Notes under the pieces: model-generated | The model's database searches: none | The model's input: the letters and a program-made list of their open reading frames with translations, nothing else | Told to the model about the DNA's origin: nothing | Origin: Bacteroidota bacterium | Lineage (GTDB): Bacteria > Bacteroidota > Bacteroidia > Bacteroidales > CAIXZF01 | Length of the DNA: 64,000 nt | Assembly (NCBI GenBank): GCA_026391855.1 | Contig: JAPLDE010000043.1 | Coordinates: forward strand, 11,505-75,504 | Direction of reading: 5' to 3' | Made by a program: the position numbers and the translations under genes | Shown here: piece by piece, positions 18,920-34,668 of the stretch | Numbering within the stretch: the first letter of the stretch is position 1 | How the letters are laid out: each line of letters begins with the position of its first letter

Positions 18920-21601
18920 CTACCAAACAGGCAGCACGCAATTAGCAATTCTTTTCTGAAGCGTTTTTTGGAAATCATCCTGACTTTGGATCATGAGGGC
19001 AGCGTTTTCTTTATGACAGGTGAGGCAGGCGCCAACGGTGAGGATACGGTGTTGTTCTTCGATGCTGAAAGGTCTGATATTCAATCGGGTAGAGGAGATG
19101 TCCTTTCTTTCCTTTAAAAACGGGATCCAGGCATCTTCGGGAAGGCTGTCTGCTTTTTTGGCTGTAAAACGGGGTTCAAATTTCCAGCGGCCGGTTTTTC
19201 CGGTAACCTGGTAGGTGAGTATTCCTCTTCCGTAACCAATAGCCAGGGGATCGTTATGGCAGGATTTGCAGGAGCGGCCTTTTGCCAGGGTGGTATGGCC
19301 CGAAGCAGGGGCATACAGCCGGCGGTTGATGGTTTCAGGTTTACCGGTAAACGAACCTATATCGATACTCATGATCATTCCGGGCGTCATAGTAACGATC
19401 TTTTTCTCCCTGATACCCAACACCGGCTTGTCAGCCAGGAACTTATCCTTGTATTCCACCCAGCTTCCTTGTTCAGGGCGGCCTGTCAGCATGTTATCAC
19501 CCAAGGTTTCTTTTTCATAGGCATTGTGGCAGCCTATACATTGGGGAACCCACTCGGTGTGACAGGCTTCACAGGAAAGCCTGCTGTGGGCTTTCCCCTT
19601 TGTACAGGCAGCCGCCGGGGGTTTCATTTTCATTGTTTTACCAGTGGTTTTTCCCACCATCATCCAGGCACTGTCGCCCGCTAAACAGGTGTTTGACAGT
19701 GGTCTGTTTCCTTTTTCCGTTACGGCCATCTTTCTTTCATCCTCTTTCCAGCCGCGTAAGCCATAAATAAGCTGTGTTTCCCGGTCTGCCTCCCTGAGTT
19801 TTACAGTATTGCCTGTATCTTTACGGTGGCAGTCAATGCATTGTACCATAACAGCCTGCTCTTTGTGCCTGTATGCGTTTCCGTCTCCCATCAGCTCATA
19901 CGAGCCATGGCAGTCGATACAACCCATCCCTTTCTGATAATGGATATCAGAACCTGTATAGCTGAAAACCCGGCCATCCGGGAGAATTTTAAATCCTTTC
20001 AGGTTTTTAACTTCGTTGGGTTTCAGTAATGTTTCATGCCAGCCTTCGTAGCTGGTGGCGATGCGTCCGGAACGGCTGTGACAGCTCATACAGCGGTCGT
20101 TGGTTATGTTTAAGCTTATGGAAGGGTGATAGAGCGGCAGGACTCCTTGTTTTCCCCTTTGTTGTTCAAATTCAGCCCTGGCCTGTTTTTCATAACCCAG
20201 GTGACAGGCATTGCAGCCGCCACCCCTGTCGAGCCAGGCAGTTGGTCCGGGTTTCGTCTTCTCATTGCCGCTATGACATCCCACGCAAAGGTGCTGAAGG
20301 TGTCTGTCGGCCGCCGTGTTCCCAAGGTTGGCCAACCCTGCAACACCATCGGGGGTTTTGTTCTCCCCGAATGCAAAACGGTCGACACTGATCATGCCGG
20401 TAAGGGTAGCCATCAGGCTGCCGGGAATCCGGTCACAGATTCCGGGATGACATCCCGGTGAACCACATGTCATCCGCGCATTTGACAGGTTTCCGGGGAC
20501 CATTTCCATATGCCTGTGGGCCTGTGTTTTATCAAGGGTGAACGGATCTCCCCGGTGACAACTGAAACAACCGGTCTGATGCACATTATGGGATTCTGTA
20601 AGACCTTTCATCCCTCCATGACAAGCCACACAACCTTCCGCCCTTCCCAGAACGACGAAAACAGGTTTAACCGGGGTGTGAAAGGTAAGAGGTTTCCATC
20701 TCAGGGCGGTTTTCAGATGATAAGAGTGCTCCCATGGCCATTGCCACTTCCAGTTTTCTCCCCTGAAAAAGAAGGCAACAAGGGTAAGAATCAGGTAAAC
20801 GAATAAAAAACAAAACAGCAGGTACTTAACGACTTTTCTGATTGAAGGCCGGAACAGAGGGAGAAGAAAAATCACCGCAAGTACCAGAAAGGAAAAAACA
20901 AGCAGGTAAACAGGATGGCTGAAAAAATGCAGCATTTCCTGGAAACCGACAAAATACCAGGGCCCTTTTAAGATATTCTCATCCATGGTGGAGAGAGGTG
21001 CCCGGAAGAAGAAGCTTAGCAGCCCGATCATGAATAAGGTAATAAGGAGTGTTTTCAGACTTCCCCAAATCGTCCGTGCATGGTCATATATAACGATCAC
21101 CAACAGAAGCGTGGCTGTCGAAAGGTGATGAATATAAACCGGCTGGAAGTTTTTCTCATTTCCCATGAATGTCTGCTGTAATATTCTACCGCCAACAGGA
21201 AGTGATTCAAGCAATCCCGCCAGTATTCGTCTTGCCTGCAGGCTGTCGGGATCGGCTTTCAGGATAAACCCTGAAATCATGGCATATGCCGTAACAAGCA
21301 GCGAAAGGGTCACTCCCAGCCAGGTATAGCGGCTTTTTATGTTGTCTTCCGTAGATTGTTTCAGATGATCAACCAGGTGGATAAGGGTAAATACCAGGAA
21401 AAGCTGGGCACTCCAGTAATGCATGTTACGTATCAGTGAGGCATAGGGATTGGCTGTTACCATCAGGGTTACAGACAAGTAGGGAAGGCTAATATCATAA
21501 GGGATGGCCAGGAAAATGCCGGACAGTATGCACAAAAGCAGGGCTGCCGTGGCAATCCGGCCATAGGTATCAAAAAGAAGCAACCTCAGACAGTTCTTCA
21601 C
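18920..21601 (-). CDS. cytochrome b (b6 + subunit IV-like, complete) fused to a multihaem (11-12 haem) c-type cytochrome domain
   Basis: The N-terminal ~290 aa carry His61-x13-His75 (IRNMHYWSAQLFLVFTLIH), His159-x14-His174 and GPWYFVGFQEML at the PEWY position, followed by 3 more TM helices. The C-terminal ~570 aa carry 11 CxxCH motifs (CVACH, CFSCH, CVGCH, CNACH, CMSCH, CIDCH x2, CEACH, CIGCH, CKSCH, CLTCH) plus CGSPGCH. Confidence 0.85.
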   Translation of the reverse strand: MKNCLRLLLFDTYGRIATAALLLCILSGIFLAIPYDISLPYLSVTLMVTANPYASLIRNMHYWSAQLFLVFTLIHLVDHLKQSTEDNIKSRYTWLGVTLSLLVTAYAMISGFILKADPDSLQARRILAGLLESLPVGGRILQQTFMGNEKNFQPVYIHHLSTATLLLVIVIYDHARTIWGSLKTLLITLFMIGLLSFFFRAPLSTMDENILKGPWYFVGFQEMLHFFSHPVYLLVFSFLVLAVIFLLPLFRPSIRKVVKYLLFCFLFVYLILTLVAFFFRGENWKWQWPWEHSYHLKTALRWKPLTFHTPVKPVFVVLGRAEGCVACHGGMKGLTESHNVHQTGCFSCHRGDPFTLDKTQAHRHMEMVPGNLSNARMTCGSPGCHPGICDRIPGSLMATLTGMISVDRFAFGENKTPDGVAGLANLGNTAADRHLQHLCVGCHSGNEKTKPGPTAWLDRGGGCNACHLGYEKQARAEFEQQRGKQGVLPLYHPSISLNITNDRCMSCHSRSGRIATSYEGWHETLLKPNEVKNLKGFKILPDGRVFSYTGSDIHYQKGMGCIDCHGSYELMGDGNAYRHKEQAVMVQCIDCHRKDTGNTVKLREADRETQLIYGLRGWKEDERKMAVTEKGNRPLSNTCLAGDSAWMMVGKTTGKTMKMKPPAAACTKGKAHSRLSCEACHTEWVPQCIGCHNAYEKETLGDNMLTGRPEQGSWVEYKDKFLADKPVLGIREKKIVTMTPGMIMSIDIGSFTGKPETINRRLYAPASGHTTLAKGRSCKSCHNDPLAIGYGRGILTYQVTGKTGRWKFEPRFTAKKADSLPEDAWIPFLKERKDISSTRLNIRPFSIEEQHRILTVGACLTCHKENAALMIQSQDDFQKTLQKRIANCVLPVW

Positions 21602-22251: not shown

Positions 22252-24498
22252 ATGAGTTCAAGGAGAGATTTTATTAAGATATCCGCGCTTGGAGTAGGAT
22301 CGACCACTGTGCTGGCGTCTGCAGCCAGGTTCGGTTTTGGATCACCACTGGAGGATATCCTGGGTTTGCCGAAGGATGAATTTCCCTCGTTTAAGCGTTA
22401 CCCGACTTATTGTGAGGTGTGTTTCTGGAAATGTGCCGGTTGGACTCATGTCGACATGGACGGCAGAATCAGGAAGATCACCGGCAACATTGAAGATCCT
22501 CAATGTAACGGGAGGTTATGCCCGAGAGGAACCGGAGGGGTAGGGATGTACAATGACAAGGACCGGCTGAAGAAGCCCCTGATCAGGGTGAGCAGGAATG
22601 GTGAACAAACCTACCGGGAGGCCAGCTGGGACGAAGCCCTTGATCTTGTCGCCGGAAAAATGAAAACACTGGCCAAAAAATATGGACCGGAAAGCATGGC
22701 TTTATTTAATCATGGATCGTCCGGTCATTACTTCACCCATTTATTGAATGCCTTTGGCTCCGGCAATATTGCCGCTCCGTCTTATGCCCAGTGTCGCGGA
22801 CCGAGGGAAGTAGGGTTTGAGACCACTTTCGGGGATTCTGTCGGAAGCCCTGAAGTTACCGATATCAGGGATACCCGCTGCCTGGTATTGATCGGTTCCC
22901 ATATCGGGGAGAACATGCATAACGGGCAGGTGCAGGAAATGTCTGATGCCATTGACAAAGGAGCTGTCATTATCACCGTTGATCCCCGCTTATCGACAGC
23001 AGCCAGCAAATCCAAGTTCTGGCTGCCCATCAAACCGGCCACGGATATTGCACTATTGTTGTCGTGGATCCATGTGCTGATCTATGACAATTTATACAAC
23101 AAGGCTTATGTTGAAAAATATACAGAAGGTTTCAGCCAGCTGAAGGATCATGTAAAGGACATGACACCGGAATGGGCCTATGGGATCACGACCATTGCAC
23201 CGGATGTCATCCGGGCAACGGCCCGTGAAATGGCCGATGCAGCCCCGTCGGTGATCGTTCATCCGGGTCGTCATGTGACCTGGTATGGGGATGATGTTCA
23301 GCGAAGCCGTGCCATCGCCATCCTGAATGCCTTGCTCGGTTCATGGGGACAGCGGGGTGGTTTCTTTTTCAGGGAAGGATTTAAACTTCCCGACTATCCC
23401 TGTCCGTCTTATCCAACACCTTCATGGTCGTGGAAAGAAACCCTGAACGGAAGGTACCCCCTGGCAAAGATGGCTGTGACCAATGCTTTTGTTGAATCGT
23501 CTATCCCTGAAACCGGAAAGGAACACATCATCAGGGGTTGGATAGTGTCAGGCACCAACCTGACCATCGCCATGCCCCTGAAGGAGTCGCTGATGAGGGC
23601 TGTACAATCGCTTGAATTACTGGTGGTTGTTGACACTATGCCCATGGAGATAACCGGTTTTGCCGATGTGGTCTTTCCGGAGTGCACCTACCTCGAACGG
23701 TATGACGATCTTCGCGATTCCCCTCATCGTGAACCTACCATCGCCTTAAGGATGCCTGCTGCTGAGCCTTCCTACGAGACCAAACCGGCATGGTGGATAG
23801 CCAGGCAGCTGGGTCTGAAACTCGGGTTAGACGCCTGGTTCAACTATAAAGACTATAAGGAAGTTCTCGACTGGCAGTTGCGCCAGGTAGGTTCATCACT
23901 GGAAGAAATGGAGAAAGTGGGTGTTAAAAGACTAAAACGGACGAAAGGGCCTTTATATATCGGAGAAGGAGAGGATTACTCTTTCAGGACACCCTCCGGT
24001 AAGATACAGCTATGGTCGAAAGAGCTGGCTGACGCCGGATTTGATGCCATCCCTTCATACACACCTCACCCTGAGCCTCCCGACGGATATTACCGCCTGA
24101 TATACGGAAGAGCTCCCATGCATACTTTCAGCCGTACGGCCAACAACCCCAACCTGGTGGCCCTGATGCCGGAAAATTCGGTGTGGGTCAACCCTAAGGT
24201 GGCTAAATTATGGGGACTGATCAAGGATCAGAAAGTATGGCTAAAAAACCAGGACGGAGTGATTTCCACCTTCCCCATTAAGGTCAGGATCACCGAAAGG
24301 ATAAGATGGGATTCGGTGTATATGGTCCATGGCTTCGGTCATCATCATAAACCATTGACCAATGCTTACGGCAGGGGAGTGAATGATACGGAAATGATCA
24401 CCCGGGTGATGACCGACCCGGTGATGGGTGGAACGGGTATGAGAGGAAACTTTATCACCTTTATTAAAGAAGATCCGCGAAAGGAGGCAATATCATGA
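22252..24498 (+). CDS. molybdopterin oxidoreductase catalytic subunit, PsrA/PhsA/SrrA-like, Tat-exported
   Basis: The signal SSRRDFIKISALGVG is twin-arginine type. The N-terminal FeS motif is CEVCFWKCAGW...CPRG. A Cys-containing AQCRGP segment is a possible Mo ligand. The length is 748 aa and the gene is followed by PsrB- and PsrC-type subunits. Confidence 0.85.
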   Translation: MSSRRDFIKISALGVGSTTVLASAARFGFGSPLEDILGLPKDEFPSFKRYPTYCEVCFWKCAGWTHVDMDGRIRKITGNIEDPQCNGRLCPRGTGGVGMYNDKDRLKKPLIRVSRNGEQTYREASWDEALDLVAGKMKTLAKKYGPESMALFNHGSSGHYFTHLLNAFGSGNIAAPSYAQCRGPREVGFETTFGDSVGSPEVTDIRDTRCLVLIGSHIGENMHNGQVQEMSDAIDKGAVIITVDPRLSTAASKSKFWLPIKPATDIALLLSWIHVLIYDNLYNKAYVEKYTEGFSQLKDHVKDMTPEWAYGITTIAPDVIRATAREMADAAPSVIVHPGRHVTWYGDDVQRSRAIAILNALLGSWGQRGGFFFREGFKLPDYPCPSYPTPSWSWKETLNGRYPLAKMAVTNAFVESSIPETGKEHIIRGWIVSGTNLTIAMPLKESLMRAVQSLELLVVVDTMPMEITGFADVVFPECTYLERYDDLRDSPHREPTIALRMPAAEPSYETKPAWWIARQLGLKLGLDAWFNYKDYKEVLDWQLRQVGSSLEEMEKVGVKRLKRTKGPLYIGEGEDYSFRTPSGKIQLWSKELADAGFDAIPSYTPHPEPPDGYYRLIYGRAPMHTFSRTANNPNLVALMPENSVWVNPKVAKLWGLIKDQKVWLKNQDGVISTFPIKVRITERIRWDSVYMVHGFGHHHKPLTNAYGRGVNDTEMITRVMTDPVMGGTGMRGNFITFIKEDPRKEAIS

Positions 24499-25028
24499 GA
24501 TATGCAATGGCTATCGATACAAGGAAGTGCGTGGGTTGCAGCGACTGTGTAGTGGCTTGCCAGACGGAGAATGATGTTCCCATCGGTTTTTGCCGTGACT
24601 GGGTGAGTGAGACGGTTGATGGCAGCTACCCCAATACCGTGATCGAATTGCGGTCGGAACGATGCAACCATTGTGAGTATGCACCTTGTGTCCGCTGCTG
24701 CCCTACCCATGCCAGTCATTACGAGGAAGGCGGTATCGTTGTAGTAACCCACCACAAATGCATCGGGTGCGGAGCCTGTATCCAGTCCTGTCCTTACGAA
24801 GCCCGCTATTCCCACCCCGAAGGATGGGTTGATAAGTGTACGTTTTGTATCCACCGGGTCAGAAAGGGGGAACAACCTGCGTGTGCAGCTGTATGCCCTA
24901 CCAAATGCATCTGTTTTGGTGACCTGGAGGATCCGAATTCAGAGGTTACCAATGTTCTTAAGAACAGAAAATACAAAGTGCTGGCCCCTGAAGCAGGCAC
25001 GAGACCCCAGATATTTTATCTTGTATAA
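24495..25028 (+). CDS. 4Fe-4S ferredoxin-type electron transfer subunit (PsrB/NrfC/DmsB-like)
   Basis: It has several CxxCxxCxxxCP-type motifs (CVGCSDCVVAC, CNHCEYAPCVRCCP, CIGCGACIQSCP, CTFC...C..VCP). It shows ATGA overlap with the catalytic subunit gene. Confidence 0.9.
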   Translation: MRYAMAIDTRKCVGCSDCVVACQTENDVPIGFCRDWVSETVDGSYPNTVIELRSERCNHCEYAPCVRCCPTHASHYEEGGIVVVTHHKCIGCGACIQSCPYEARYSHPEGWVDKCTFCIHRVRKGEQPACAAVCPTKCICFGDLEDPNSEVTNVLKNRKYKVLAPEAGTRPQIFYLV

Positions 25029-25052
25029 AACCAGTAACCAATAAGTTACATT

Positions 25053-25994
25053 ATGAAAGAAGAATTATTTGTCAGCGGAAGAAATATACCGGATATCGAT
25101 CCCTTTCTGAATATCTGGCATTGGCAGATTCCGCTGTATCTTTTCCTGGGCGGGCTGGCTGCCGGCATCCTTTTCTTTGCCGGTTTGTTTACTTTACTGG
25201 GAAAGGACAAGGAAATGCCGGCCACCGTTAAATGGGCTACGCTGATTACTCCTTTAGCCCTGATCCTTGGTCTTTTCTTTCTTTTCCTCGACCTCAAACA
25301 CAAATCTTACTTCTGGCAGCTTTACACGACCATGCGCTTCGAATCACCCATGTCGTGGGGTGCCTGGGTATTGCTGGCCATCACTCCTCTGTCAATGGTC
25401 TGGGTGGGAAGCTATATGAAAGAGATGTTTCCCGGCTGGTCATGGAAACTGGCCTTACTCGACAGGTTTGAGGCCTGGACCATTCGTTACCGGTTTTACC
25501 TGGCCTGGGTAATCGTCGTATTGTCGGTGGTGCTGGGCATTTATACCGGTATCCTTTTATCGGCCTTTAACGCCCGGCCATTGTGGAACAATTCCATTCT
25601 CGGTCCGTTGTTCCTGGTATCCGGAATGTCGACCGGTGCTGCCGTGATCATCCTGATGAGTAAGAGTCATTATGAGAAAACGATCATGTCGCGGATAGAT
25701 CTGTTGCTGATCGTGATTGAGATTTTTTTCATCTTCCACATGATCATGGGTTTCAGGGCGGGATCAGCAGTACAGATCGCAGCGGCCAACCTGTTTGTAG
25801 GCGGACCGTTTACCATCAATTTCTGGGTTTTTGTTGTTTTACTCGGGTTATTGTTCCCGGCTCTGCTGGAGACCCTGGAGTTGAGGGGTTTCCGCGTTCC
25901 GGCCGTCGTTCCGGCCATTCTCATCCTGATGGGCGGGTTTATGTTCCGCTTCATCATGGTTGAGGCCGGACAGATCACCAGGTATTTATATTGA
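25053..25994 (+). CDS. NrfD/PsrC-family integral membrane quinol-interacting subunit
   Basis: The 313 aa product has about 8 TM helices and occupies the third position of a Mo/FeS/membrane operon. Confidence 0.8.
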   Translation: MKEELFVSGRNIPDIDPFLNIWHWQIPLYLFLGGLAAGILFFAGLFTLLGKDKEMPATVKWATLITPLALILGLFFLFLDLKHKSYFWQLYTTMRFESPMSWGAWVLLAITPLSMVWVGSYMKEMFPGWSWKLALLDRFEAWTIRYRFYLAWVIVVLSVVLGIYTGILLSAFNARPLWNNSILGPLFLVSGMSTGAAVIILMSKSHYEKTIMSRIDLLLIVIEIFFIFHMIMGFRAGSAVQIAAANLFVGGPFTINFWVFVVLLGLLFPALLETLELRGFRVPAVVPAILILMGGFMFRFIMVEAGQITRYLY

Positions 25995-26014
25995 TCATCA
26001 TATATATTAAAAAA

Positions 26015-26557
26015 ATGGAAAAATCAGAAGAAAAGCCGGGTTGGCGGAAAGGTAACTTTTACGTGAATCCATACCTGGGAGGGCTGATGCTAGGATTGGT
26101 ACTGCTGGCAACTTTTTACATTACCGGCAGGGGACTGGGTGCCAGCGGTGCCGTGAAGAACACAGTGGTTACCACCGTGCATACCCTGGCACCGGCGCAT
26201 GCCGAATCCTCTCATTACTATAGTAAATTCCTCAGTACCAATACACAACCCATGAACAACTGGTTGGTTTTTGAGGTGTTGGGCGTACTGGCCGGGGCAT
26301 TCCTGTCGGGTTTAATATATAACAGGCTGAATTTCAGGATAGAACATTCACCAAAGATCACTTCCCGCCGTCGGCTTATTTTCGCTTTTGCCGGTGGAAT
26401 GTTGTTTGGATTCGGCTCGCAGCTGGCCAGGGGATGCACCAGTGGTGCCGCCCTGAGCGGAATGGCCGTACTGTCGGCTGCAGGTTTTATTACCATGATG
26501 GCGATCTTCGGAACAGCCTACGTTTTTGCTTACATTCTCAGAAAGAACTGGATCTAA
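26015..26557 (+). CDS. YeeE/YedE-family sulfur (thiosulfate/selenium)-compound transporter component, half 1
   Basis: The polytopic product carries the conserved GFGSQLARGCTSGAALSG cysteine motif. Start is chosen at MEKSEE. Confidence 0.8.
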   Translation: MEKSEEKPGWRKGNFYVNPYLGGLMLGLVLLATFYITGRGLGASGAVKNTVVTTVHTLAPAHAESSHYYSKFLSTNTQPMNNWLVFEVLGVLAGAFLSGLIYNRLNFRIEHSPKITSRRRLIFAFAGGMLFGFGSQLARGCTSGAALSGMAVLSAAGFITMMAIFGTAYVFAYILRKNWI

Positions 26558-26569
26558 AAAAATATCATT

Positions 26570-27163
26570 ATGACTGGACCATTGATTCCTTTAGGATATA
26601 TCCCCGAAGCATGGAATAACGTTTTTGCTGTTTTGCTGGGTATGGGATTCGGGTTTACCCTCGAATCCTCCGGGTTCTCTTCTTCCAGGAAGATCATGGG
26701 AACCTTTTACGGCTATGACTTCGTTGTGCTGAAAGTGTTCTTTACCGCAGCCATTACAGCGGTTGTAGGGCTTCTGTATCTCGATCAGATTGGCTGGGCT
26801 GACTTTTCAGCCATGTACGTATTGCCGACCTACATGGCTGCAGCCATCACCGGGGGAGTGATCATGGGAATGGGATTTGCTATGGGTGGCTATTGCCCGG
26901 GAACAAGTTTTTGTGCTGTTGCCATAGGGAAAATTGATGCCCTGCTTTTCTCAGCCGGTCTACTGGTTGGAATCTTCATCTTTTCAGAAGCCTTCCCGCT
27001 GATGGAAAAAATATATGAAAGCGGAAACCTGGGTGCGCTCCGGGTAAATGAAGCCCTGGGAATATCTGCCGGGTTGTTCACCTTTCTTCTCATACTCATA
27101 GCCCTCGGTATGTTCTGGGTCGCCACCATTGTACAAGGTAAGGTGAAAAAGGTTGAATATTAA
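26570..27163 (+). CDS. YeeE/YedE-family transporter component, half 2
   Basis: The polytopic product carries GFAMGGYCPGTSFCA. It is adjacent to half 1, as in split YeeE/YedE pairs. Confidence 0.8.
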   Translation: MTGPLIPLGYIPEAWNNVFAVLLGMGFGFTLESSGFSSSRKIMGTFYGYDFVVLKVFFTAAITAVVGLLYLDQIGWADFSAMYVLPTYMAAAITGGVIMGMGFAMGGYCPGTSFCAVAIGKIDALLFSAGLLVGIFIFSEAFPLMEKIYESGNLGALRVNEALGISAGLFTFLLILIALGMFWVATIVQGKVKKVEY

Positions 27164-27174
27164 GCACTTATCCT

Positions 27175-27825
27175 ATGAATAAAAGATATCTCATTCTTTC
27201 TGCCCTGTTGATCCTTGCCGGTATTGGCCTGGTTATCCTGCCGCAAAAATCGAAGAACAAGGAACTGACCCCGGAAGAGCTCCTGATGGCTATTAAAGAC
27301 CCTTCCCGCTTTGTGAGTACTGATCTTATTACTGATCGCATTATAAAGAAAGACCCTTCACTGGTCATTGTTGATGTGAGGCCGGCGAAAGAGTTCAAGA
27401 TTTTTTCACTGCCCGGGTCGGTCAATATCCCGATGGACTCTCTGTTAAGCGGAGCGTCAATGGCGATCCTTAAACCAGAGGGGAAGGATAAAGTTTTTTG
27501 TTCTGATGATGATATTTTGGCAGATCAAGCCTGGCAAATCTTTAAACGACTGAATATCAGCAATATATTTATTATGAAGACAGGAGTAAACGGGTGGATC
27601 AATACCATTATGAAGGATAATCCTCCGCTTCCGACCGAAGATTCAAGGGCCTATGATCTCTATTCATTCCGTAAAGCAGCCAGACAGTATTTTCAGGGGA
27701 AAGATGCCACTTCTTCTTCCAACCGGCAACAAAATGATAATAAAGACAATCCTGCTGTTCCGAAGAAGGAAAAACTTAACCTTCAGAAGTCAACTAATAC
27801 CAAACCAGCAGGGGGTGGCTGCTGA
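27175..27825 (+). CDS. membrane-anchored rhodanese-homology-domain protein
   Basis: There is an N-terminal TM helix. VIVDVRPAKEFKIFSLPGSVNIP is rhodanese-type. The candidate loop VFCSDDDILADQAW contains Cys but is acidic, so catalytic status is unclear. The C-terminal tail is low complexity and ends in GGGC. Confidence 0.7.
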   Translation: MNKRYLILSALLILAGIGLVILPQKSKNKELTPEELLMAIKDPSRFVSTDLITDRIIKKDPSLVIVDVRPAKEFKIFSLPGSVNIPMDSLLSGASMAILKPEGKDKVFCSDDDILADQAWQIFKRLNISNIFIMKTGVNGWINTIMKDNPPLPTEDSRAYDLYSFRKAARQYFQGKDATSSSNRQQNDNKDNPAVPKKEKLNLQKSTNTKPAGGGC

Positions 27826-27993: not shown

Positions 27994-28725
27994 TCACCCA
28001 TTTGGAAAAGCAATCAACTTCAAACTAACGATCAATAAAATAACACTCAGTGTGTACTTCAGGGCGACCGGAGTGAATTTCCGGCTTCCCGACCAGGCCC
28101 CGCCCATGGCTCCGAGAAATGCCATCCCTATCCAGGCATAATGCTGAACCGTTAAGTTGGCAAAGAAGGGAAGAATAGCCAATGATCCTGATAATGAATT
28201 AAGAAAGATAAATGCTGCTGAAATGGCTGCAGTTTCTTTGATCCCTGCCCATCTTCTGATCAGCAGTAAGGGAGAAAGGAAGACCCCGCCGCCTATTCCG
28301 ATGATCCCGGAAAGGAACCCGATCAGGACACCCCATCCGGCAGCTTCAAACACCCTGACCGGTTTTGCGACCGGTTCTTCATGAAACCTTACCAACAACC
28401 GGGTAGCAGCAAACAGTAAAGCAATTCCCAGCAGAATCTTGTAAACCAGCGGGTTGATCTGCAGACCCGAACCAAGGAAAGCCATGGGAAAAGAAGTGAT
28501 GGCAAAAGGAAGTAAAATTTTCAGTCTGAAATAACCTTTTGAGTAATAATGTAAAAAGGCGATCATCGAAACAAGGAGGTTCAAGACGAGGGCCGAGGGT
28601 CGCATAACTTCAGGAAGAAAGCCGTATACAGCCATCAGGGCGAGATAGCCCGTTGCACCTCCATGACCTACAGACGAATAAAAGAAAGCGATAATGAATA
28701 TCGCCAGCAGAAAAAACAGATCCAT
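27994..28725 (-). CDS. TauE/SafE (DUF81) family anion permease
   Basis: Start is chosen at MDLFFLLAIFIIAFFYSSVGHGGATGY, the typical family N-terminus. About 8 TM helices. AAAGGAG lies 7 nt upstream of this ATG. Confidence 0.85.
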   Translation of the reverse strand: MDLFFLLAIFIIAFFYSSVGHGGATGYLALMAVYGFLPEVMRPSALVLNLLVSMIAFLHYYSKGYFRLKILLPFAITSFPMAFLGSGLQINPLVYKILLGIALLFAATRLLVRFHEEPVAKPVRVFEAAGWGVLIGFLSGIIGIGGGVFLSPLLLIRRWAGIKETAAISAAFIFLNSLSGSLAILPFFANLTVQHYAWIGMAFLGAMGGAWSGSRKFTPVALKYTLSVILLIVSLKLIAFPNG

Positions 28726-28730
28726 TGTTG

Positions 28731-28840
28731 TCTCCTTTCCAATTTGGTTATTTACCGCGGGGGGCAGCACTGTTTCCGGTGCTACTCATCGGCCTTGCAT
28801 TCATAGGTTCTCACCGTTAGAAGGGAAGGCTCGGAGATTT
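28731..28840 (-). ncRNA. candidate Moco (molybdenum cofactor) riboswitch in the TauE-like leader
   Basis: The minus-strand RNA reads AAAUCUCCGAGCC...AAGGCC...AGCACCGGAAACAGUGCU...GGAAAGGAGA. UCUCC can pair with GGAGA, sequestering the SD-like AAAGGAG. Nested helices GCCUU/AAGGC, UUCU/AGAA and AGCAC/GUGCU are possible. CUCCGAGCC and AAAGGAG match my recollection of conserved Moco-motif blocks. This has not been verified by a covariance model. Confidence 0.4.
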
Positions 28841-28875
28841 AATTGACAATTGACAATTAATAATTAATAATTAAC
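28841..28875. repeat. heptamer tandem array (AATTGAC x2, AATTAAT x2, AATTAAC)
   Basis: Read directly. It lies between the mobA stop and the structured leader. Confidence 0.9.
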
Positions 28876-28889
28876 ATGTTTGGACAAAA

Positions 28890-29480
28890 TTAGATGGAAT
28901 TGCTTAATAAGGCAAGGTCTTCCGGAAAATTTATGCTTTTAAAATACAGGGGATGCCAGTCAGGAAAATCTTCACGGACCCTGAGTTTTTGAATGGGTAT
29001 TGAATGAAGTAAGTCGGGAAGCTTATAATTCTCATTATCAATGAATTCAGCCATTTTTTCAATCATACTCTTATGATAATATCCCACCAGTGGCTCGAAA
29101 TACATTTCGTCGAGAAAAGGGAGGGCCGCCGGATAATCATTGATCCTCTTTATCACATAGTCAAAGTAAGCAGTATCCACATAAATATTATCAACAGCCA
29201 TGACCAGGTTAAAGGCTGTTTGTGAGGCCAGCAGGCTGCTGTATAACCCCATCATCGGGCCTTTACCTCTTACCAGATCGGGTACCGGAATTGCACCGGA
29301 AAGCGGGTAGCCGGGGTTATTGGTGCTGATGAGGATAGTTCCGGTGAGCGGGCGCAAAACCTGTAATGCTCTCTCTGCCAGTGTGATGCCTTTATAAATC
29401 AGCAATCCTTTATCGGTCCCCAGGCGGCTGCTTTTCCCACCTGCCAGGATAATTCCGGTAAATAACTCTTTGCTGAACAT
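28890..29480 (-). CDS. mobA: molybdenum cofactor guanylyltransferase
   Basis: The N-terminus GIILAGGKSSRLGTDKGLL is the MobA nucleotide-binding signature. The length is 196 aa. Confidence 0.85.
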   Translation of the reverse strand: MFSKELFTGIILAGGKSSRLGTDKGLLIYKGITLAERALQVLRPLTGTILISTNNPGYPLSGAIPVPDLVRGKGPMMGLYSSLLASQTAFNLVMAVDNIYVDTAYFDYVIKRINDYPAALPFLDEMYFEPLVGYYHKSMIEKMAEFIDNENYKLPDLLHSIPIQKLRVREDFPDWHPLYFKSINFPEDLALLSNSI

Positions 29481-29833: not shown

Positions 29834-32800
29834 TCAGTACTGGATCACTGACTCGGTATCCGCCTGAAGATCAAATGATTTCCCGTTTACAGTGATGCTT
29901 GCGTTTTTATCAGCCGTTGCCGTGAGGGATTCCCCGGCTATTTTCAGCTGGTAGGCTACTCCCCTGAAGGTTAATTTGCAACTAATTGATTTCCAGGCAG
30001 GAGGAAGATTTGGAGATAAACTGAGGACAGGGCCATTCACGTTGATGCCGGCATAGGTCGATAAGGCGATCTGTATCGTTCCGCCCATGACCCCGGCGTG
30101 GATGCCTTCTGCCGTGGTTCCACCCTGGATATCGTAATAGTCGCTGGAAAGCGCTTCACAGTATAATTCCCAGCTCATGTCCATGTTGCCTGCGAGGGCT
30201 GCCAGGCGGGCGTGAACGATGCGGCTCAGGGTACTTCCATGAGAGGTGCGTTTGAAATAGTATTCGAGATTTCTTTGCAGATAATCTGCAGGTAGCTGGT
30301 AATCAAGTTGTTGTATTAAAGCATCGACGGTAGTTTTGTCGAGGTTGTAGAACACCATGAGCATATCAGCCTGTTTGGCAACTTTATATTCATCCGGGGA
30401 TTTACCTTCCGTTTTAAGGATACGGTCCATACGGTAGATATTACCGTATGTTTCACGGTAGTATTCCCAGTCAAGTTCTTTTAAGTCGAAATATCCCTCG
30501 TATTGGGCAATGATACCCTCTTTACTGAGGGAAAGCCCAAGTTTACGGGAGATTTTCATCCATTGATCAGTTTCTTCCTCAACCAGACCTATTCTTTCTG
30601 TTACTTCCAGCCTGTCATCCCCCAGTATTTCCAGTATATCCTTTGCCCGGGCAAAGGCCCAGGCAACCATGAGGTTGGTATATGCATTATTGGTTAGTCC
30701 TCCCTGAGCTGAGCCTGGATATTGTTCATGGAATTCATCGGGGCCCATCACTTCAGGTATGTCGTAGCGTCCTGATTTTTCATTCCACACGGTTTTACTG
30801 GCCCAGAAACGGCATATTTCAAGAAACAATTCTGCACCATAATCCTTCAGAAACTCTCCATCGTTGGTTATATGGAAGTATTGCCAGACATTGCAGGCGA
30901 TAGCCAGGGAGACATGGCGTTGCAGGCAGCTGTGGTCGGGGTCCCATAGTCCTGACAGGGGGTTGAGATGGATTACCTGGGTTTCCTCCCTTCCGTCAGA
31001 CCCGCTTTGCCAGGGAAACATGGCACCCAGGTAACCATTGGCCGCAGCATATTCCCTTGCCTTGTCCAGCCTGCGGTAACGGTACATCAGCATCGACCGG
31101 GCTACCTCAGGGAAATTCAGGTCATAAACCGGCAAAATGAAGATCTCATCCCAGAAGATATGGCCCCGGTAGGCTTCTCCATGAAGTCCGCGGGCAGTGA
31201 TACCGGCATCGATTCGGCAGTTGTTGGGCGACATTGAAACGATCAGGTGATACAGGTGAAGGCGAAGCAATTTCTGTGAGGATCGGTCATTCCCAACCCT
31301 GATATCCATTTTGTTCCACAATTCTTCCCAGTTGTTGTAGCTGATCTCACGGAAATCGACATAGTCGAAATGTCCTGATACTGCCTTGATGGCTGCTTCA
31401 AGCGGTTCAGGTTCATCATCCGGTTTTGAGGTATAGATCCCGACCCTTTTTATCATGGCGTATGAGATCCCCTGTCTGACCTCGAAGCTAAGCGTGCCAT
31501 AGACAGCATCCTCCTGAATTTCAGGCAGTAAGCTCATGGTGAAACGCAGGCCGTCCTTGTAAAAATAGTGATTGGAGGCCTCAGCGATCATTACCCCGGA
31601 CTGGCTGGTCACCACCACCAGTGAAAGAAGGTTTCCTTTGGCGTGGGCTTTAATAGGTACAATATGATGCTGGTTGAGTGATTTATATCGTTCTACATTT
31701 CCATTAACGACATTACCGTTCAAGCCGGTGCGGAAGGTAATTTTTCCGCTATAATTCAGCGGTGTGACCGAATACCTGAGGGCAGCCAGGTGAGGGTCGT
31801 TCATGGAAACCAGACGCTCGGAACTGATATGGGTTTCACGGCCTTTGTCGTCCCTGACCACCAGGTAACGCCTCAACAGACCGCTGTACAGGTTAAGCCG
31901 GCGTTCAACAGAAAGGATGGTGGTTGTGTTTATGTCGAACCAATCATCGTCATCTATTTTAAAAGTCAGGCAAAGCCAGTTGGGGATATTCACAAAATCT
32001 TCATTTTCCACGTCATGGCCGGCAACGGGTGTAATCAGCCTGTTATAGAGCCCGGCGATGTAGGTGCCCGGGTAGTTGATCCCGCTGGCATTGTTTTCTT
32101 CCATGGCTCCGCGGGTGCCGAGATAACCGTTTCCTACAGTCAGAAGGGCTTCACGGGTACCTTCTTTTTCGGGTTCATAGGAGTGGTAAGTGATCCACCA
32201 GTTTTCACGGTCCAGGTCTTTGGCGAACCAATGATTGATGCGGTCAAATCCCGAATCGATCATATCCGTAACCACATAGTCGGCACCATTGAGAAGCAGT
32301 TCGTGTGAATTTTCTTCGCGGGCGATACCGATCACCAGGCCGAAATTTCCTGAGTGTCCGGCAGCAACCCCTGAAACGGCGTCTTCCACCACAACGGACC
32401 GGGCCGGTTCGGAGTTCAGGTTATAACAGGCGGTAAGAAAGATATCGGGGGCTGGTTTGCCCTGAAGTCCTTTTTCAGCGGAAACAATACCATCCACAAT
32501 GGTTTCTACCAGGGGCATCAGCCCGGCAGCTTCAAGGACGGTCCGGCAATTCTTGCTTGAAGAAGCAACACCTATTCGAACGCCTTTCTTACGGAGGGTT
32601 TTCATCAGGGCTACCGTTGAATCATATACCTTAACGCCTTCCTGCCGGAGTACCTCGTTGAAAGCACTGTTTTTCCTGTTGCCCAGTCCGCAGATGGTTT
32701 CCTGTTTCTCTTCATCTGAGGGATCACCGAACGGAATATGAATTCCCCTTGATTCCAGGAAGGAGCTTACCCCGTCATAGCGGGGCTTACCGTCGACATA

Positions 32801-32980
32801 TTTCAGGTAATCCTGCTCATGCGAAAATTCCCGGAAAGGTTCTCCATGGCTGACTTCCCTTTTCCACAGGTAGCTGTCGAACATCTTTTTCCAGGCTTGG
32901 CTGTGTACCAGGGCAGTTTGAGTGATCACCCCATCCAGGTCGAAAATCACTGCATCAAATTGTGGTGTTGTTTCTTTCAT
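29834..32980 (-). CDS. fusion protein: beta-phosphoglucomutase (HAD) + glycoside hydrolase family 65 phosphorylase (maltose/kojibiose/trehalose type)
   Basis: The N-terminal HAD motifs are FDLDGVITQT, VASSS, GKPAPDIF and VEDAVSG. About 800 aa of GH65 architecture follow, with GHIFWDEIF at the catalytic acid region. Confidence 0.9.
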   Translation of the reverse strand: MKETTPQFDAVIFDLDGVITQTALVHSQAWKKMFDSYLWKREVSHGEPFREFSHEQDYLKYVDGKPRYDGVSSFLESRGIHIPFGDPSDEEKQETICGLGNRKNSAFNEVLRQEGVKVYDSTVALMKTLRKKGVRIGVASSSKNCRTVLEAAGLMPLVETIVDGIVSAEKGLQGKPAPDIFLTACYNLNSEPARSVVVEDAVSGVAAGHSGNFGLVIGIAREENSHELLLNGADYVVTDMIDSGFDRINHWFAKDLDRENWWITYHSYEPEKEGTREALLTVGNGYLGTRGAMEENNASGINYPGTYIAGLYNRLITPVAGHDVENEDFVNIPNWLCLTFKIDDDDWFDINTTTILSVERRLNLYSGLLRRYLVVRDDKGRETHISSERLVSMNDPHLAALRYSVTPLNYSGKITFRTGLNGNVVNGNVERYKSLNQHHIVPIKAHAKGNLLSLVVVTSQSGVMIAEASNHYFYKDGLRFTMSLLPEIQEDAVYGTLSFEVRQGISYAMIKRVGIYTSKPDDEPEPLEAAIKAVSGHFDYVDFREISYNNWEELWNKMDIRVGNDRSSQKLLRLHLYHLIVSMSPNNCRIDAGITARGLHGEAYRGHIFWDEIFILPVYDLNFPEVARSMLMYRYRRLDKAREYAAANGYLGAMFPWQSGSDGREETQVIHLNPLSGLWDPDHSCLQRHVSLAIACNVWQYFHITNDGEFLKDYGAELFLEICRFWASKTVWNEKSGRYDIPEVMGPDEFHEQYPGSAQGGLTNNAYTNLMVAWAFARAKDILEILGDDRLEVTERIGLVEEETDQWMKISRKLGLSLSKEGIIAQYEGYFDLKELDWEYYRETYGNIYRMDRILKTEGKSPDEYKVAKQADMLMVFYNLDKTTVDALIQQLDYQLPADYLQRNLEYYFKRTSHGSTLSRIVHARLAALAGNMDMSWELYCEALSSDYYDIQGGTTAEGIHAGVMGGTIQIALSTYAGINVNGPVLSLSPNLPPAWKSISCKLTFRGVAYQLKIAGESLTATADKNASITVNGKSFDLQADTESVIQY

Positions 32981-34668
32981 ATTTCAATCCATCTAAAACC
33001 GTAGGCTTCAATAGTTTTTACATTATCATGATCAAGGATCTCCCGTCCTGACAGGATTTCCGGCCGAAGATCCAGCGATATCGGCTGGCTGGTCATGTTA
33101 TGAATGATGATCAGTTTTTGATCTCCGTATTCACGGCGGAAGGCCAGCAATGATCCGCCGGAAGTGCCCTTCATCTCTCTGAAAGAGATTTTTCCCCGGC
33201 CAAAGACCTTATAAAGACTACGTGTACGAAGCATCTTTCTCAGTTTACCATAGACCTGGTTTTCAAGGCTGGACGGATTACTGAGCGCTTCCCCGACCTG
33301 TGACCAGTTTATCCGGCCTCTTACCAGGAAACGGGTGTCATCCTTGCCTGTCATCGTTATCATTTCATGGTAATAGGCTTCATCATTGGTTTTCCCGAAT
33401 TCATCCCCATAGTAGATCACTGGTGTTCCCGGTAAGGTAAGGATGATCGAGCAGGCGAGCAGTATCTTTCGCGGGTCGCGCTCCATCAGTTCCGAAAGCC
33501 GTGCTGAGATTCCTTCTCCCATCCTGAAATTCCATAAGGGCTGATGGCAGTATTGGTCATGGATATATTTTCTTTCTTCTTCCGAAACATACACCAGTTC
33601 CAGACTAAGTTCGTCGTGGCAGCGGAGGAAGGTGAACCACTGGCAGTTTTCCGGTATAGTTGGAGTGAAGTTCTCAGACAAGGTCTCTTCGATGGGTTTT
33701 CCGCTTTGCATGGCAATGGATTTGAAGATACGCGGCATGAGCGGGAAATGATAAGCGGCATGACATTCGTCGCCCTCACCGAGGTAGGAGACCACTTCTG
33801 CGGGTTTCTGGCAGGCCTCGGCCAGCAGCAATGTTCCGGGTTTGACATGATCGAGCAAAGCCCTGAAGAATTTCACTGCTACATGGGTGTTTGTAAGGTT
33901 CTCACAATCTGTATTCTCCTCCTTCCACAGGTAAGGTATGGCATCTGCACGGAAACCGTCCACTCCCATATGCTGCCAGTACAAGAGGTTACGGCACATC
34001 GAAAAGAGTACCTCCGGGTTATGGTAGTTCAGGTCGGGCTGGAAACTGAAAAAACGATGAAAGTAATATTCCTCTCCACAGGCTTCCCAGTTGGATGTTT
34101 CAATGCCTTTAAAGATGATGCGTGCCTTTTGATATAGTGTGGTATCTTTACTCCAGATATAATACTGCCGGTAAGGATTGGAGGTGGATTTTACTGCTTC
34201 CCGGAACCAGGGATGCTGGTCGGAGGTATGGTTGATGGCAATATCGAAGATAACCCTGATATTTCTCCGGTGTGCTTCTTCCAGAAAGGCAGGGAATGCT
34301 TCAGGAACTAATTCGGGCCTGATATCCAGGTAGTCTCTTATGTCGAAACCCGCATCGCGCATAGGGGAATCCAGCACAGGCAGCAGCCAGAGGCATGTCA
34401 CTCCCAGGTCCTCCAGATATTCCAGCTTGTTTGTCAGCCCGGGCAGGTCTTCATTAAACAGGTCCACGTAAAGCGAATACACTACCGCATCTTTATACCA
34501 GGTAACATCAGTTTTATCAGAAATTTCCGCGGAGTGAAGGAATTCAACGCTCTTCAGGAAATCGGTCAGGAGCCGGTTTGATACGTCCGGATAGAGTAGC
34601 TTCCAATATGCCAGTAATTTTTCTTTGTTTTCCACGAAGTCAAAAGTAAACAAAAGAAGCCGCCACAA
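32977..34668 (-). CDS. GH13 alpha-amylase-family enzyme, trehalose synthase/amylosucrase-like
   Basis: GH13 regions: I FDIAINHTS, II GVDGFRADAIPYLWK, III LLLAEA, IV FLRCHDELSLE. It shows ATGA overlap with the GH65 fusion gene. Confidence 0.8.
   Translation of the reverse strand: MWRLLLFTFDFVENKEKLLAYWKLLYPDVSNRLLTDFLKSVEFLHSAEISDKTDVTWYKDAVVYSLYVDLFNEDLPGLTNKLEYLEDLGVTCLWLLPVLDSPMRDAGFDIRDYLDIRPELVPEAFPAFLEEAHRRNIRVIFDIAINHTSDQHPWFREAVKSTSNPYRQYYIWSKDTTLYQKARIIFKGIETSNWEACGEEYYFHRFFSFQPDLNYHNPEVLFSMCRNLLYWQHMGVDGFRADAIPYLWKEENTDCENLTNTHVAVKFFRALLDHVKPGTLLLAEACQKPAEVVSYLGEGDECHAAYHFPLMPRIFKSIAMQSGKPIEETLSENFTPTIPENCQWFTFLRCHDELSLELVYVSEEERKYIHDQYCHQPLWNFRMGEGISARLSELMERDPRKILLACSIILTLPGTPVIYYGDEFGKTNDEAYYHEMITMTGKDDTRFLVRGRINWSQVGEALSNPSSLENQVYGKLRKMLRTRSLYKVFGRGKISFREMKGTSGGSLLAFRREYGDQKLIIIHNMTSQPISLDLRPEILSGREILDHDNVKTIEAYGFRWIEI

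Follow-up and report, generated by a model that had tools for sequence, protein, structure and literature searches.

What is the leader that separates mobA from a permease gene in a Bacteroidota genome, and what does the permease carry? The locus lies in a 64,000-nucleotide (nt) stretch of contig JAPLDE010000043.1 (assembly GCA_026391855.1, positions 11,505 to 75,504), here called the window, in which a permease of the TauE/SafE family (TSUP) is encoded on the minus strand. We find that the leader matches the riboswitch class that senses the molybdenum cofactor or, as proposed, the tungsten cofactor (Moco and Tuco, respectively). Our overall reading, to which we give a probability of roughly 0.75, is that this RNA, which lacks stem P3 of the class, is a translational OFF switch for a permease that imports molybdate or tungstate.

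The whole window was scanned blind with cmscan against 4,227 Rfam families. The sole match above its gathering threshold was to RF01055, the Moco/Tuco riboswitch aptamer, at 28848-28716 on the minus strand; it scored 55.9 bits (gathering threshold, 36; E = 1.1e-10) and covered model positions 1-135 of 135. With R1, a custom P3-less model, the same aptamer scored 106.8 bits. The initial annotation of this DNA, made from the letters alone, had called a candidate Moco riboswitch from a leader sequence that is found on the minus strand as it was written, and had named an RF01055 search as the check; the match bears that call out. The parts of the aptamer, and the gene that follows it, are listed here.

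28716-28848, minus strand: full match to RF01055 (covariance model)
28833-28837, minus strand: 5' strand of P1, UCUCC (Rfam alignment; pairs nearly invariant in orthologs)
28792-28830, minus strand: P2 hairpin, with P2a formed by 28830-28820 and 28802-28792
28815-28813 with 28808-28806, minus strand: apical hairpin P2b, GGU paired with ACC
28820-28817 and 28805-28802, minus strand: tetraloop-receptor halves CUAA and UAUG in the internal loop of P2, as defined by Regulski et al. (2008)
28788-28791, minus strand: J2/4 linker CGAU, in place of P3 (Rfam alignment)
28762-28787, minus strand: P4 hairpin, 28787-28777 paired with 28772-28762 and capped by GAAA at 28776-28773
28739-28761, minus strand: P5, CC 28761-28760 paired with GG 28740-28739
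28731-28740, minus strand: invariant core GGAAAGGAG (28740-28732) and 3' strand of P1, GGAGA (28735-28731)
27994-28725, minus strand: TauE/SafE-family permease gene, 243 amino acids (aa), from ATG 28725-28723 to stop codon TGA 27996-27994

P1 is formed by UCUCC at 28837-28833 and GGAGA at 28735-28731, and the receptor in P2 is of the 11-nt type. The GAAA tetraloop on P4 and its receptor in the P2 bulge, a pair characteristic of the family, are both present. So are CUCCGAG, on the 5' side of P1/P2, and GGAAAGGAG, at P5/P1; these elements are nearly invariant in 15 of 15 orthologous leaders, and the GGAAAGGAG core is fully invariant in the same set. P5 encloses a small hairpin (GGU 28756-28754 with ACC 28748-28746) whose sequence varies among orthologs, most of which keep the hairpin. 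Stem P3 is absent: model positions 59-73 are deleted and the chain runs from P2 through CGAU into P4, so that the aptamer falls outside the P3-containing (Moco-type) subgroup. By sequence, the RNA shows all the defining features of RF01055 that can be tested and adds a member to a known class; the leader of the TauE gene is almost certainly a P3-less representative of the Moco/Tuco riboswitches.

Most of the helices sketched in the initial annotation have a place in this architecture. UCUCC/GGAGA is P1, GCCUU/AAGGC is the base of P2, and AGCAC/GUGCU with its GAAA loop is P4; the conserved blocks named there, CUCCGAGCC and AAAGGAG, are invariant junction nucleotides of the family. The proposed UUCU/AGAA helix was in the wrong register. 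We rejected it in favor of the consensus, in which both the Rfam alignment and covariation pair UUC 28822-28820 with GAA 28802-28800; the AGAA belongs to the apical P2b hairpin. An unusually strong Shine-Dalgarno (SD) sequence had also been noted. An SD-like GGAG is present, at 28735-28732 within both the GGAAAGGAG core and the 3' strand of P1, but it is a conserved element of the aptamer core and not an independent oddity.

The mechanical open reading frame (ORF) call for the permease begins at a GTG (28770-28768) that sits in the 3' strand of P4. Were the region a coding extension of TauE from this codon, the motif match would be fortuitous, and three database homologs annotated with long N-termini appear to side with the ORF call. 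Against such an extension, most of 120 listed homologs are 241-243 aa long, the N-termini of 25 of 25 aligned homologs fall on the Met at 28725, and an independent gene call on another contig with an identical gene took ATG 28725, which gives 243 aa. The long N-termini of the few database homologs are read-through of the conserved aptamer, their "...GKE..." being encoded by GGAAAGGAG. Moreover, the stretch between GTG and ATG evolves by the compensatory base-pair changes typical of RNA, and the Rfam match has an E value of 1e-10. We therefore place the start at ATG 28725-28723, the GTG having been rejected on homolog lengths, aligned N-termini, and the independent gene call; a coding extension can be regarded as effectively refuted. 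A start at GTG 28770 had been named at the outset as the finding that would place the structure inside coding sequence, and the riboswitch reading survives it.

Comparison with relatives carries much of the weight. We gathered 80 genomic loci encoding relatives of the permease (designated by L numbers; counts out of 81 are these loci plus the window). At the Rfam gathering threshold, 14 of the first 17 loci scanned had RF01055 immediately before TauE and in the same orientation, and a clade-specific covariance model was built from 15 aptamers of Rfam-positive loci. A strict regular expression for the motif recovered just 5 loci, a strong underestimate of its prevalence, and was replaced by covariance-model searches. 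With the clade-specific model, the window and 20 of the 80 loci proved to have the aptamer, and none was found upstream of TauE in the other 60; Rfam at gathering gave no Moco motif match in a set of 17 loci, 16 of them negatives. Two more contigs, with permeases 77-80% identical, also have the aptamer. The same RNA thus lies directly 5' of a TauE homolog, always on the same strand, in 22 orthologous leaders from Bacteroidales, Marinilabiliales-type, and Chlorobiota genomes, and P3 is absent from all 23 TauE-linked aptamers, which have a 2-4-nt linker instead. In a neighbor-joining tree the riboswitch-bearing permeases form essentially one group. One divergent TauE-linked aptamer (L012:3745-3885) has CUUCGGG for CUCCGAG and GGUGGA for GAUGGG; it falls below Rfam gathering yet scores 65.9 bits with the clade-specific model, which shows that Rfam under-calls this clade.

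The helices covary across the 22 orthologous leaders, a check that had been proposed along with the riboswitch. Covariation was examined twice, first with 15 sequences in a MAFFT alignment not fitted to the structure and then with 23 sequences aligned to the model. In the 15-sequence alignment, 86.9% of cells were paired (38-47% in register-shifted controls), compensatory changes were seen at 21 of 34 pairs, and the covariation score was 0.489, compared with at most 0.125 in controls; none of 500 shuffles reached any observed measure. With 23 sequences the corresponding values were 87.5% paired (37-47% in slid controls), 24 of 34 pairs, and a score of 0.540 against control scores of no more than 0.134. 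By helix, compensatory changes occurred at 10 of 11 pairs of P2a and 4 of 4 pairs of P2b. P1 and P5 are nearly invariant across orthologs, as expected of junction helices, and are neutral as evidence.

How, then, might the aptamer act on the gene? In the window the AUG lies 6 nt beyond the GGAG box and the P1 3' strand. This placement of GGAG and AUG points to a ligand-dependent OFF switch, one that we consider likely to act on translation. When molybdopterin-type cofactor is abundant, it would bind the junction and lock P1 and P5; the locked P1 would bury the ribosome-binding region, and translation of the permease would be repressed. When cofactor is scarce, the 5-bp P1 would open and the permease would be made. 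The result would be a feedback loop on the metal supply for cofactor synthesis, serving the neighboring MobA and a molybdoenzyme of the Psr/Phs type. A precedent is the E. coli moaA element, which has its ribosome-binding site in P1 and, by genetics, represses expression when Moco is produced (Regulski et al., 2008). In-line probing cannot be applied routinely to Moco, which is too labile (Regulski et al., 2008).

Among the relatives, the one aptamer has been combined with three or more kinds of expression platform: an AUG that lies in P1 or beside it, classical terminators, and a spacer of about 90 nt. The ATG follows the core by 5-6 nt in L002, L013, L082, and L083 as well, and L029 has an in-frame ATG 5 nt after it. 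Textbook intrinsic terminators follow the aptamer in the Chlorobiota loci and in L015. The terminator-type spacers that we compared were those of L016, L033, L036, L060, and L015; in the first three, the 5' arm of the terminator has a UUUCC run able to pair with GGAAA of the core. The third platform occurs in a group of Bacteroidales loci (L004, L008, L009, L017, and L041), where the spacer has no U-tract and contains CUGUAUCC, which is conserved and complements the 3' region of P1. Of these platforms, P1 occlusion and terminators can be interpreted, and each would fit an OFF switch.

A promoter search for the leader used the Bacteroidota consensus TAnnTTTG, a sigma-70 promoter scan being uninformative for this phylum, and gave one candidate:

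28885-28892, minus strand: candidate Bacteroidota -7 promoter box TAATTTTG (TAnnTTTG; sequence match, putative function)

The box overlaps the mobA stop codon, TAA at 28892-28890, and is accompanied by a CTTG -33-like element at 28916-28913. In 8 of 21 riboswitch loci the 90 nt that precede P1 include a perfect TAnnTTTG, compared with 4.7% of random 90-nt windows. Transcription in the window is predicted to start at about 28878, downstream of the box. The TauE leader therefore probably has a promoter of its own; no terminator was predicted between mobA and TauE, and read-through from mobA may also occur. Between the promoter-like box and P1, at 28842-28871, lie AT-rich tandem repeats (TTATTAA twice, then TTGTCAA twice), which on the plus strand read as TTGACA-type sigma-70 hexamers.

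The permease itself says little about its substrate. Its match to PF01925 is strong (E = 2.6e-27; 96.5 bits, gathering threshold 32.6) and covers residues 21-252 of the 258-aa ORF that starts at the GTG, corresponding to profile positions 2-237 of 237; the protein has no Pfam match besides TauE and no NCBIfam match. An AlphaFold 2 model is confident and all helical (predicted local distance difference test, 85; predicted template modeling score, 0.83). No solved relative was found by sequence, and none was significant by fold (best Foldseek E value, 0.036), so that the structure gave no functional clue.

Its genomic company is more telling. ORFs were called in all loci and clustered, and annotation of the cluster representatives gave MoaC and a MOSC-MoaB/MogA fusion (c1), MoeA (c2), MobA/MocA (c3), MoaA (c4), MoeB (c5), MoaE (c6), a 108-125-aa helix-turn-helix protein resembling the N-terminus of ModE (c7), and a weakly MobB-like P-loop protein (c8). 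Of the 81 loci, 69 have one or more Moco biosynthesis genes no farther than 4 kb from the permease gene, and 54 have members of at least three such families. The usual operon in riboswitch loci is riboswitch-TauE-c8-MoeA-MoaA-MoaC-MOSC/MoaB. In riboswitch-less Flavobacteriia, Cytophagia, Chitinophagia, and Sphingobacteriia, TauE lies within clusters of the form MoaA-MoeA-(ModE-like)-TauE-MobA-MoeB-MoaE-MoaC/B. The c8 protein, about 180 aa long, has a Walker A motif GxGRNxGKT, a sub-threshold MobB match, and no NCBIfam name; its gene comes after TauE or directly after the riboswitch, always precedes MoeA (as in L004:4728-5291, L041:4728-5276, and L002:4725-5267), and is missing from the window. 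The protein is likely to be a divergent factor of the MobB type.

Of 60 riboswitch-less loci, 15 have the ModE-like gene in a flank, compared with none of the 21 riboswitch loci (Fisher p = 0.009). In 11 of the riboswitch-less loci it is directly upstream of TauE on the same strand, often overlapping it. Examples of the gene, from among the 15 loci, are L071:3663-3989, L032:3644-3976, L042:3648-3983, and L026:3433-3783 (TIGR00637, 83.6 bits; Pfam HTH_1). Several Cytophagales loci without nearby moa genes still have it beside TauE. This looks like replacement of one regulator by another, a ModE-like gene standing in the place of the riboswitch. Genes for TonB-dependent receptors also occur in Moco/TauE clusters (L039:268-2814, L064:194-2791, L021:882-3458, and L081:4805-7366); the last two are the Cytophagales loci in which the receptor accompanies the ModE-like gene and TauE. 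In two metagenome contigs, L148 and L140, such a receptor is the first gene after a P3-less aptamer. The receptors suggest dedicated outer-membrane uptake of molybdenum, tungsten, or a chelated form.

An independent scan of metagenomes with a P3-less sequence pattern gave more than 120 stretches, of which 80 were retrieved. The first gene after the aptamer encodes a TauE homolog in 39 of the 80, the MobB-like head of MoeA-MoaA-MoaC operons in 19, and MobA in 2. Occasional first genes encode a TonB-dependent receptor, a small membrane protein resembling the energy-coupling-factor substrate-binding component (ECF-S), or a twin-arginine-exported enzyme with molybdenum bis(pyranopterin guanine dinucleotide) (Mo-bisPGD). 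The small membrane proteins that come first in L111, L124, and L156 (195-253 aa, two of them about 195 aa) have at best a weak ECF-S/ABC_cobalt-like Pfam match, and could be another riboswitch-controlled transporter.

Uptake of molybdate or tungstate is the sole transport step that Moco biosynthesis needs. This Moco-gene context, taken together with repression by cofactor sufficiency, the logic of modABC control, and precedents within the family, points to an inner-membrane importer of molybdenum or tungsten. The precedents are a bacterial TauE-family member that mediates sulfate uptake (PMC11535334) and rice OsDISMO1, a TauE-family protein reported in 2025 to transport molybdenum (PMC12227400). 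We favor, with reasonable though not strong confidence, the candidate function of importing molybdate and/or tungstate; the initial annotation had likewise suggested handling of molybdate, tungstate, or a related oxyanion rather than, or as well as, sulfite export, and the comparative context strongly supports a molybdate/tungstate role. For the clade as a whole we lean only slightly toward a broader proposal, in which these TauE proteins would be unrecognized inner-membrane molybdenum/tungsten importers of Bacteroidota, Chlorobiota, and some other phyla, some working with a TonB-dependent receptor. They would be governed by interchangeable sensors of molybdenum status: the P3-less riboswitch where a lineage appears to be anaerobic, a ModE-like repressor where it appears to be aerobic.

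In the window itself, the neighbors of the permease gene are the following.

28890-29480, minus strand: mobA, molybdenum cofactor guanylyltransferase, directly upstream of the riboswitch
22252-27825, plus strand: convergent operon, client of the cofactor
22252-24498, plus strand: PhsA/PsrA-like Mo-bisPGD subunit
24495-25028, plus strand: 4Fe-4S subunit
25053-25994, plus strand: NrfD/PsrC
25991-27163, plus strand: two YeeE/YedE-type half transporters (188 and 197 aa)
27175-27825, plus strand: rhodanese

The molybdenum-related setting described in the initial annotation is as it was stated, with mobA directly upstream and the Mo-bisPGD enzyme with its Fe-S and NrfD subunits at 22252-25994. The order mobA-riboswitch-TauE recurs in the closest relatives, L002, L029, L038, L082, and L083. 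In the window, L029, L038, and L083, TauE is followed by a convergent gene, so the permease is all that the switch controls there; in L002 and L082, another gene of the same orientation comes after TauE. L083 is fully syntenic with the window, and in L007, L012, and L131 the same enzyme genes are on the same strand as riboswitch-TauE. The split YeeE/YedE and rhodanese module (25991-27825) is conserved in L007, L012, L083, and L131.

Several observations weigh against the reading of the locus as an OFF switch for a metal importer. The named members of the family are sulfite or sulfonate exporters, and the gene is convergent with sulfur-metabolism genes (Psr/Phs, the YeeE halves, and rhodanese), which makes a sulfur-anion role possible. 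Apart from mobA, tblastn found no moa, moe, or mod gene in the 64-kb window. The single-sequence folding energy of the aptamer is unexceptional (z = -0.91) and P1 has just 5 bp; the folding centroid nonetheless shows P1, P2, P4, and the P5 hairpin, and support for the RNA comes from the covariance model and the comparative data, not from thermodynamics. Bacteroidota generally do not depend on SD pairing, and what looks like sequestration of an SD sequence may really be occlusion of the initiation region. Finally, at 28786, where 21 of 23 aligned aptamers have G (21 G-C, 1 G-U), the window aptamer has changed from G to A; the A.C mismatch that results at the base of P4 could weaken the aptamer or attenuate its response to ligand.

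The change at 28786 may explain why the window's 55.9 bits is among the lowest Rfam scores scanned, with only L074 (55.7) lower; a deviation at a nearly invariant core pair, with so low a score, is what a decayed, unresponsive aptamer and constitutive expression might look like, and the terminators of relatives, together with a terminator-like hairpin predicted at 28705-28687, would suit control of transcription here instead. We think either outcome improbable. An independent assembly contig, L001, has the same A, which rules out a mistake in assembly; no other conserved position is altered, P1/P5 and the tetraloop-receptor pair are preserved, the aptamer clears the gathering threshold by 20 bits even so, and A.C mismatches beside G-C pairs are often tolerated. 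The predicted hairpin lies inside the coding region, and such sites are no commoner (3 found) than in shuffled sequence (2.4 expected). As for the permease, it might export sulfite, thiosulfate, or anions derived from polysulfide, working with the Psr/Phs-YeeE-rhodanese module, while the riboswitch merely co-ordinates it with the availability of the enzyme's cofactor. Pfam does place the protein in TauE/SafE, its gene is convergent with the psr/phs-type genes, YeeE halves, and rhodanese both here and in L083 and adjoins them in L007, L012, and L131, and Moco motifs are reported upstream of genes for Moco-dependent enzymes (Regulski et al., 2008). The conserved partners, however, are Moco biosynthesis genes (69 of 81 loci), with Psr/Phs in only about five loci; where there is no sulfur enzyme, the gene has for company a ModE-like regulator and TonB-dependent receptors, which serve in uptake; and an OFF switch would stop export just when the partner enzyme is best supplied with cofactor. 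Export is thus unlikely, and the recurring Psr/Phs neighbor is more simply taken as the principal client of the cofactor.

A third alternative refines the importer reading and concerns the metal: the P3-less aptamer would sense Tuco, and the permease would import tungstate for enzymes with tungsten-bis(molybdopterin guanine dinucleotide). The absence of P3 from 23 of 23 TauE-linked aptamers speaks for it. So does the apparently mostly anaerobic character of the riboswitch-bearing lineages (Bacteroidales/Marinilabiliales-type and Chlorobiota MAGs, i.e., metagenome-assembled genomes), tungsten use being commoner in anaerobes. Regulski et al. (2008) proposed that P3-less motifs sense the tungsten cofactor, having found 58 of 176 motifs without P3, segregating almost perfectly with Tuco-related or molybdopterin (MPT) biosynthesis genes; in the same work, the E. 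coli RNA simply lost activity when its P3 was deleted. The P3/Tuco rule is correlative, and we found no later experimental test of it in the literature. At the present loci, neither the 64-kb window nor the examined locus flanks yielded a tupA, wtpA, or AOR-type gene, and the window ORFs include nothing tungsten specific and no mod gene; the clients encoded next to the switch are bis-PGD enzymes of the Psr/Phs type, which usually use molybdenum. Orthologs of the permease in Flavobacteriia, Chitinophagia, and Sphingobacteriia, which are mostly aerobic, sit with ModE-like regulators, and a Pedobacter ortholog with a nitrate-reductase-like gene, both of which point to molybdate. A tungsten-specific system is therefore possible but, as we see it, rather doubtful, and we retain molybdate and/or tungstate as the candidate substrate.

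Set beside known systems, the window RNA resembles the E. coli moaA Moco riboswitch: they share a covariance-model family, the junction nucleotides, the GAAA tetraloop and receptor, and a ribosome-binding site in the P1 3' strand, which implies repression at abundant cofactor. They differ in that the E. coli RNA has P3 and controls moaABCDE, whereas the window RNA lacks P3 and controls a lone TauE-family permease. The host, a Bacteroidota MAG, is also new ground, since neither Bacteroidota nor Chlorobiota is among the phyla listed in the 2008 description, and DUF81/COG0730 is not in the list of associated domains in its supplement (Regulski et al., 2008). The P3-less variants of Clostridia and delta-Proteobacteria in that study likewise have a short P2-P4 linker replacing P3 and are associated with molybdopterin biosynthesis genes and transporters; unlike the present ones, they are linked to tupA/wtpA-type tungstate transporters or tungsten enzymes, while here nothing tungsten specific lies in the window or flanks and the regulated transporter belongs to the unrelated family PF01925.

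In its logic the proposed circuit is like E. coli ModE/ModABC and riboswitch-controlled modABC, in which oxyanion uptake is repressed at sufficient molybdate or cofactor, and riboswitch-less relatives carry the ModE-N-terminal-like gene beside TauE. The transporter, however, is a single-polypeptide membrane protein of the secondary-carrier type and not an ATP-binding cassette system; by sequence it is unrelated to ModA, ModB, and ModC, and it is not homologous to ModABC, TupABC, or WtpABC. With Cupriavidus TauE (sulfite export), Pseudomonas fluorescens TK06_RS10770 (sulfate uptake), and OsDISMO1, it shares PF01925 and the form of a small all-helical membrane protein, and the substrates of those members are tetrahedral oxyanions or sulfonates. 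A Moco riboswitch controls none of the three, and none belongs to an operon for Moco biosynthesis; the window clade, unlike characterized members, lacks both an NCBIfam name and a solved structural relative. We found no report in the searchable literature linking bacterial TauE/TSUP/DUF81/YfcA proteins with molybdenum or with this riboswitch.

The RNA as such is routine, its class having been known since 2008 and being flagged by any Rfam-based annotation. The value lies in the regulated gene, a "sulfite exporter" by annotation that heads riboswitch-controlled Moco operons in many Bacteroidota and Chlorobiota. The association of TauE with Moco operons or a ModE-like regulator is a classic comparative-genomics signature of a missing transporter, and it offers a concrete candidate for molybdate or tungstate acquisition in these bacteria, from a transporter clade that is widespread and misnamed. 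If the adjacent enzymes and the aerobic orthologs use molybdenum, the P3-less aptamers would contradict the rule that absence of P3 means tungsten cofactor; the 23 aptamers, and more than 100 metagenomic ones, tied to Psr/Phs-type enzymes are a natural test set for the tungsten proposal.

Some further genes of the region may be recorded. At 18920-21601 on the minus strand, an 893-aa fusion protein combines an N-terminal cytochrome b domain with multiheme cytochrome c motifs; a homolog that is 51% identical adjoins TauE in L029 (4859-7246) and L038, and L083 has a similar 882-aa cytochrome fusion. The protein may be an electron-transfer partner of the reductase. In several relatives, mobA-riboswitch-TauE is closely preceded by genes for an arsenate reductase (LMWPc/ArsC) and an ACR3-type (SBF family) arsenite carrier (L002:471-1938, L082:7067-8559, and L074:936-3249), another oxyanion theme. 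On the other side of mobA in the window, 29834-34668 on the minus strand encodes a 1,048-aa fusion of a beta-phosphoglucomutase-type HAD domain and a GH65 phosphorylase, then a TreS-like GH13 protein and a SusE/F-like protein; this is a maltose/trehalose/kojibiose utilization module, unrelated to the riboswitch.

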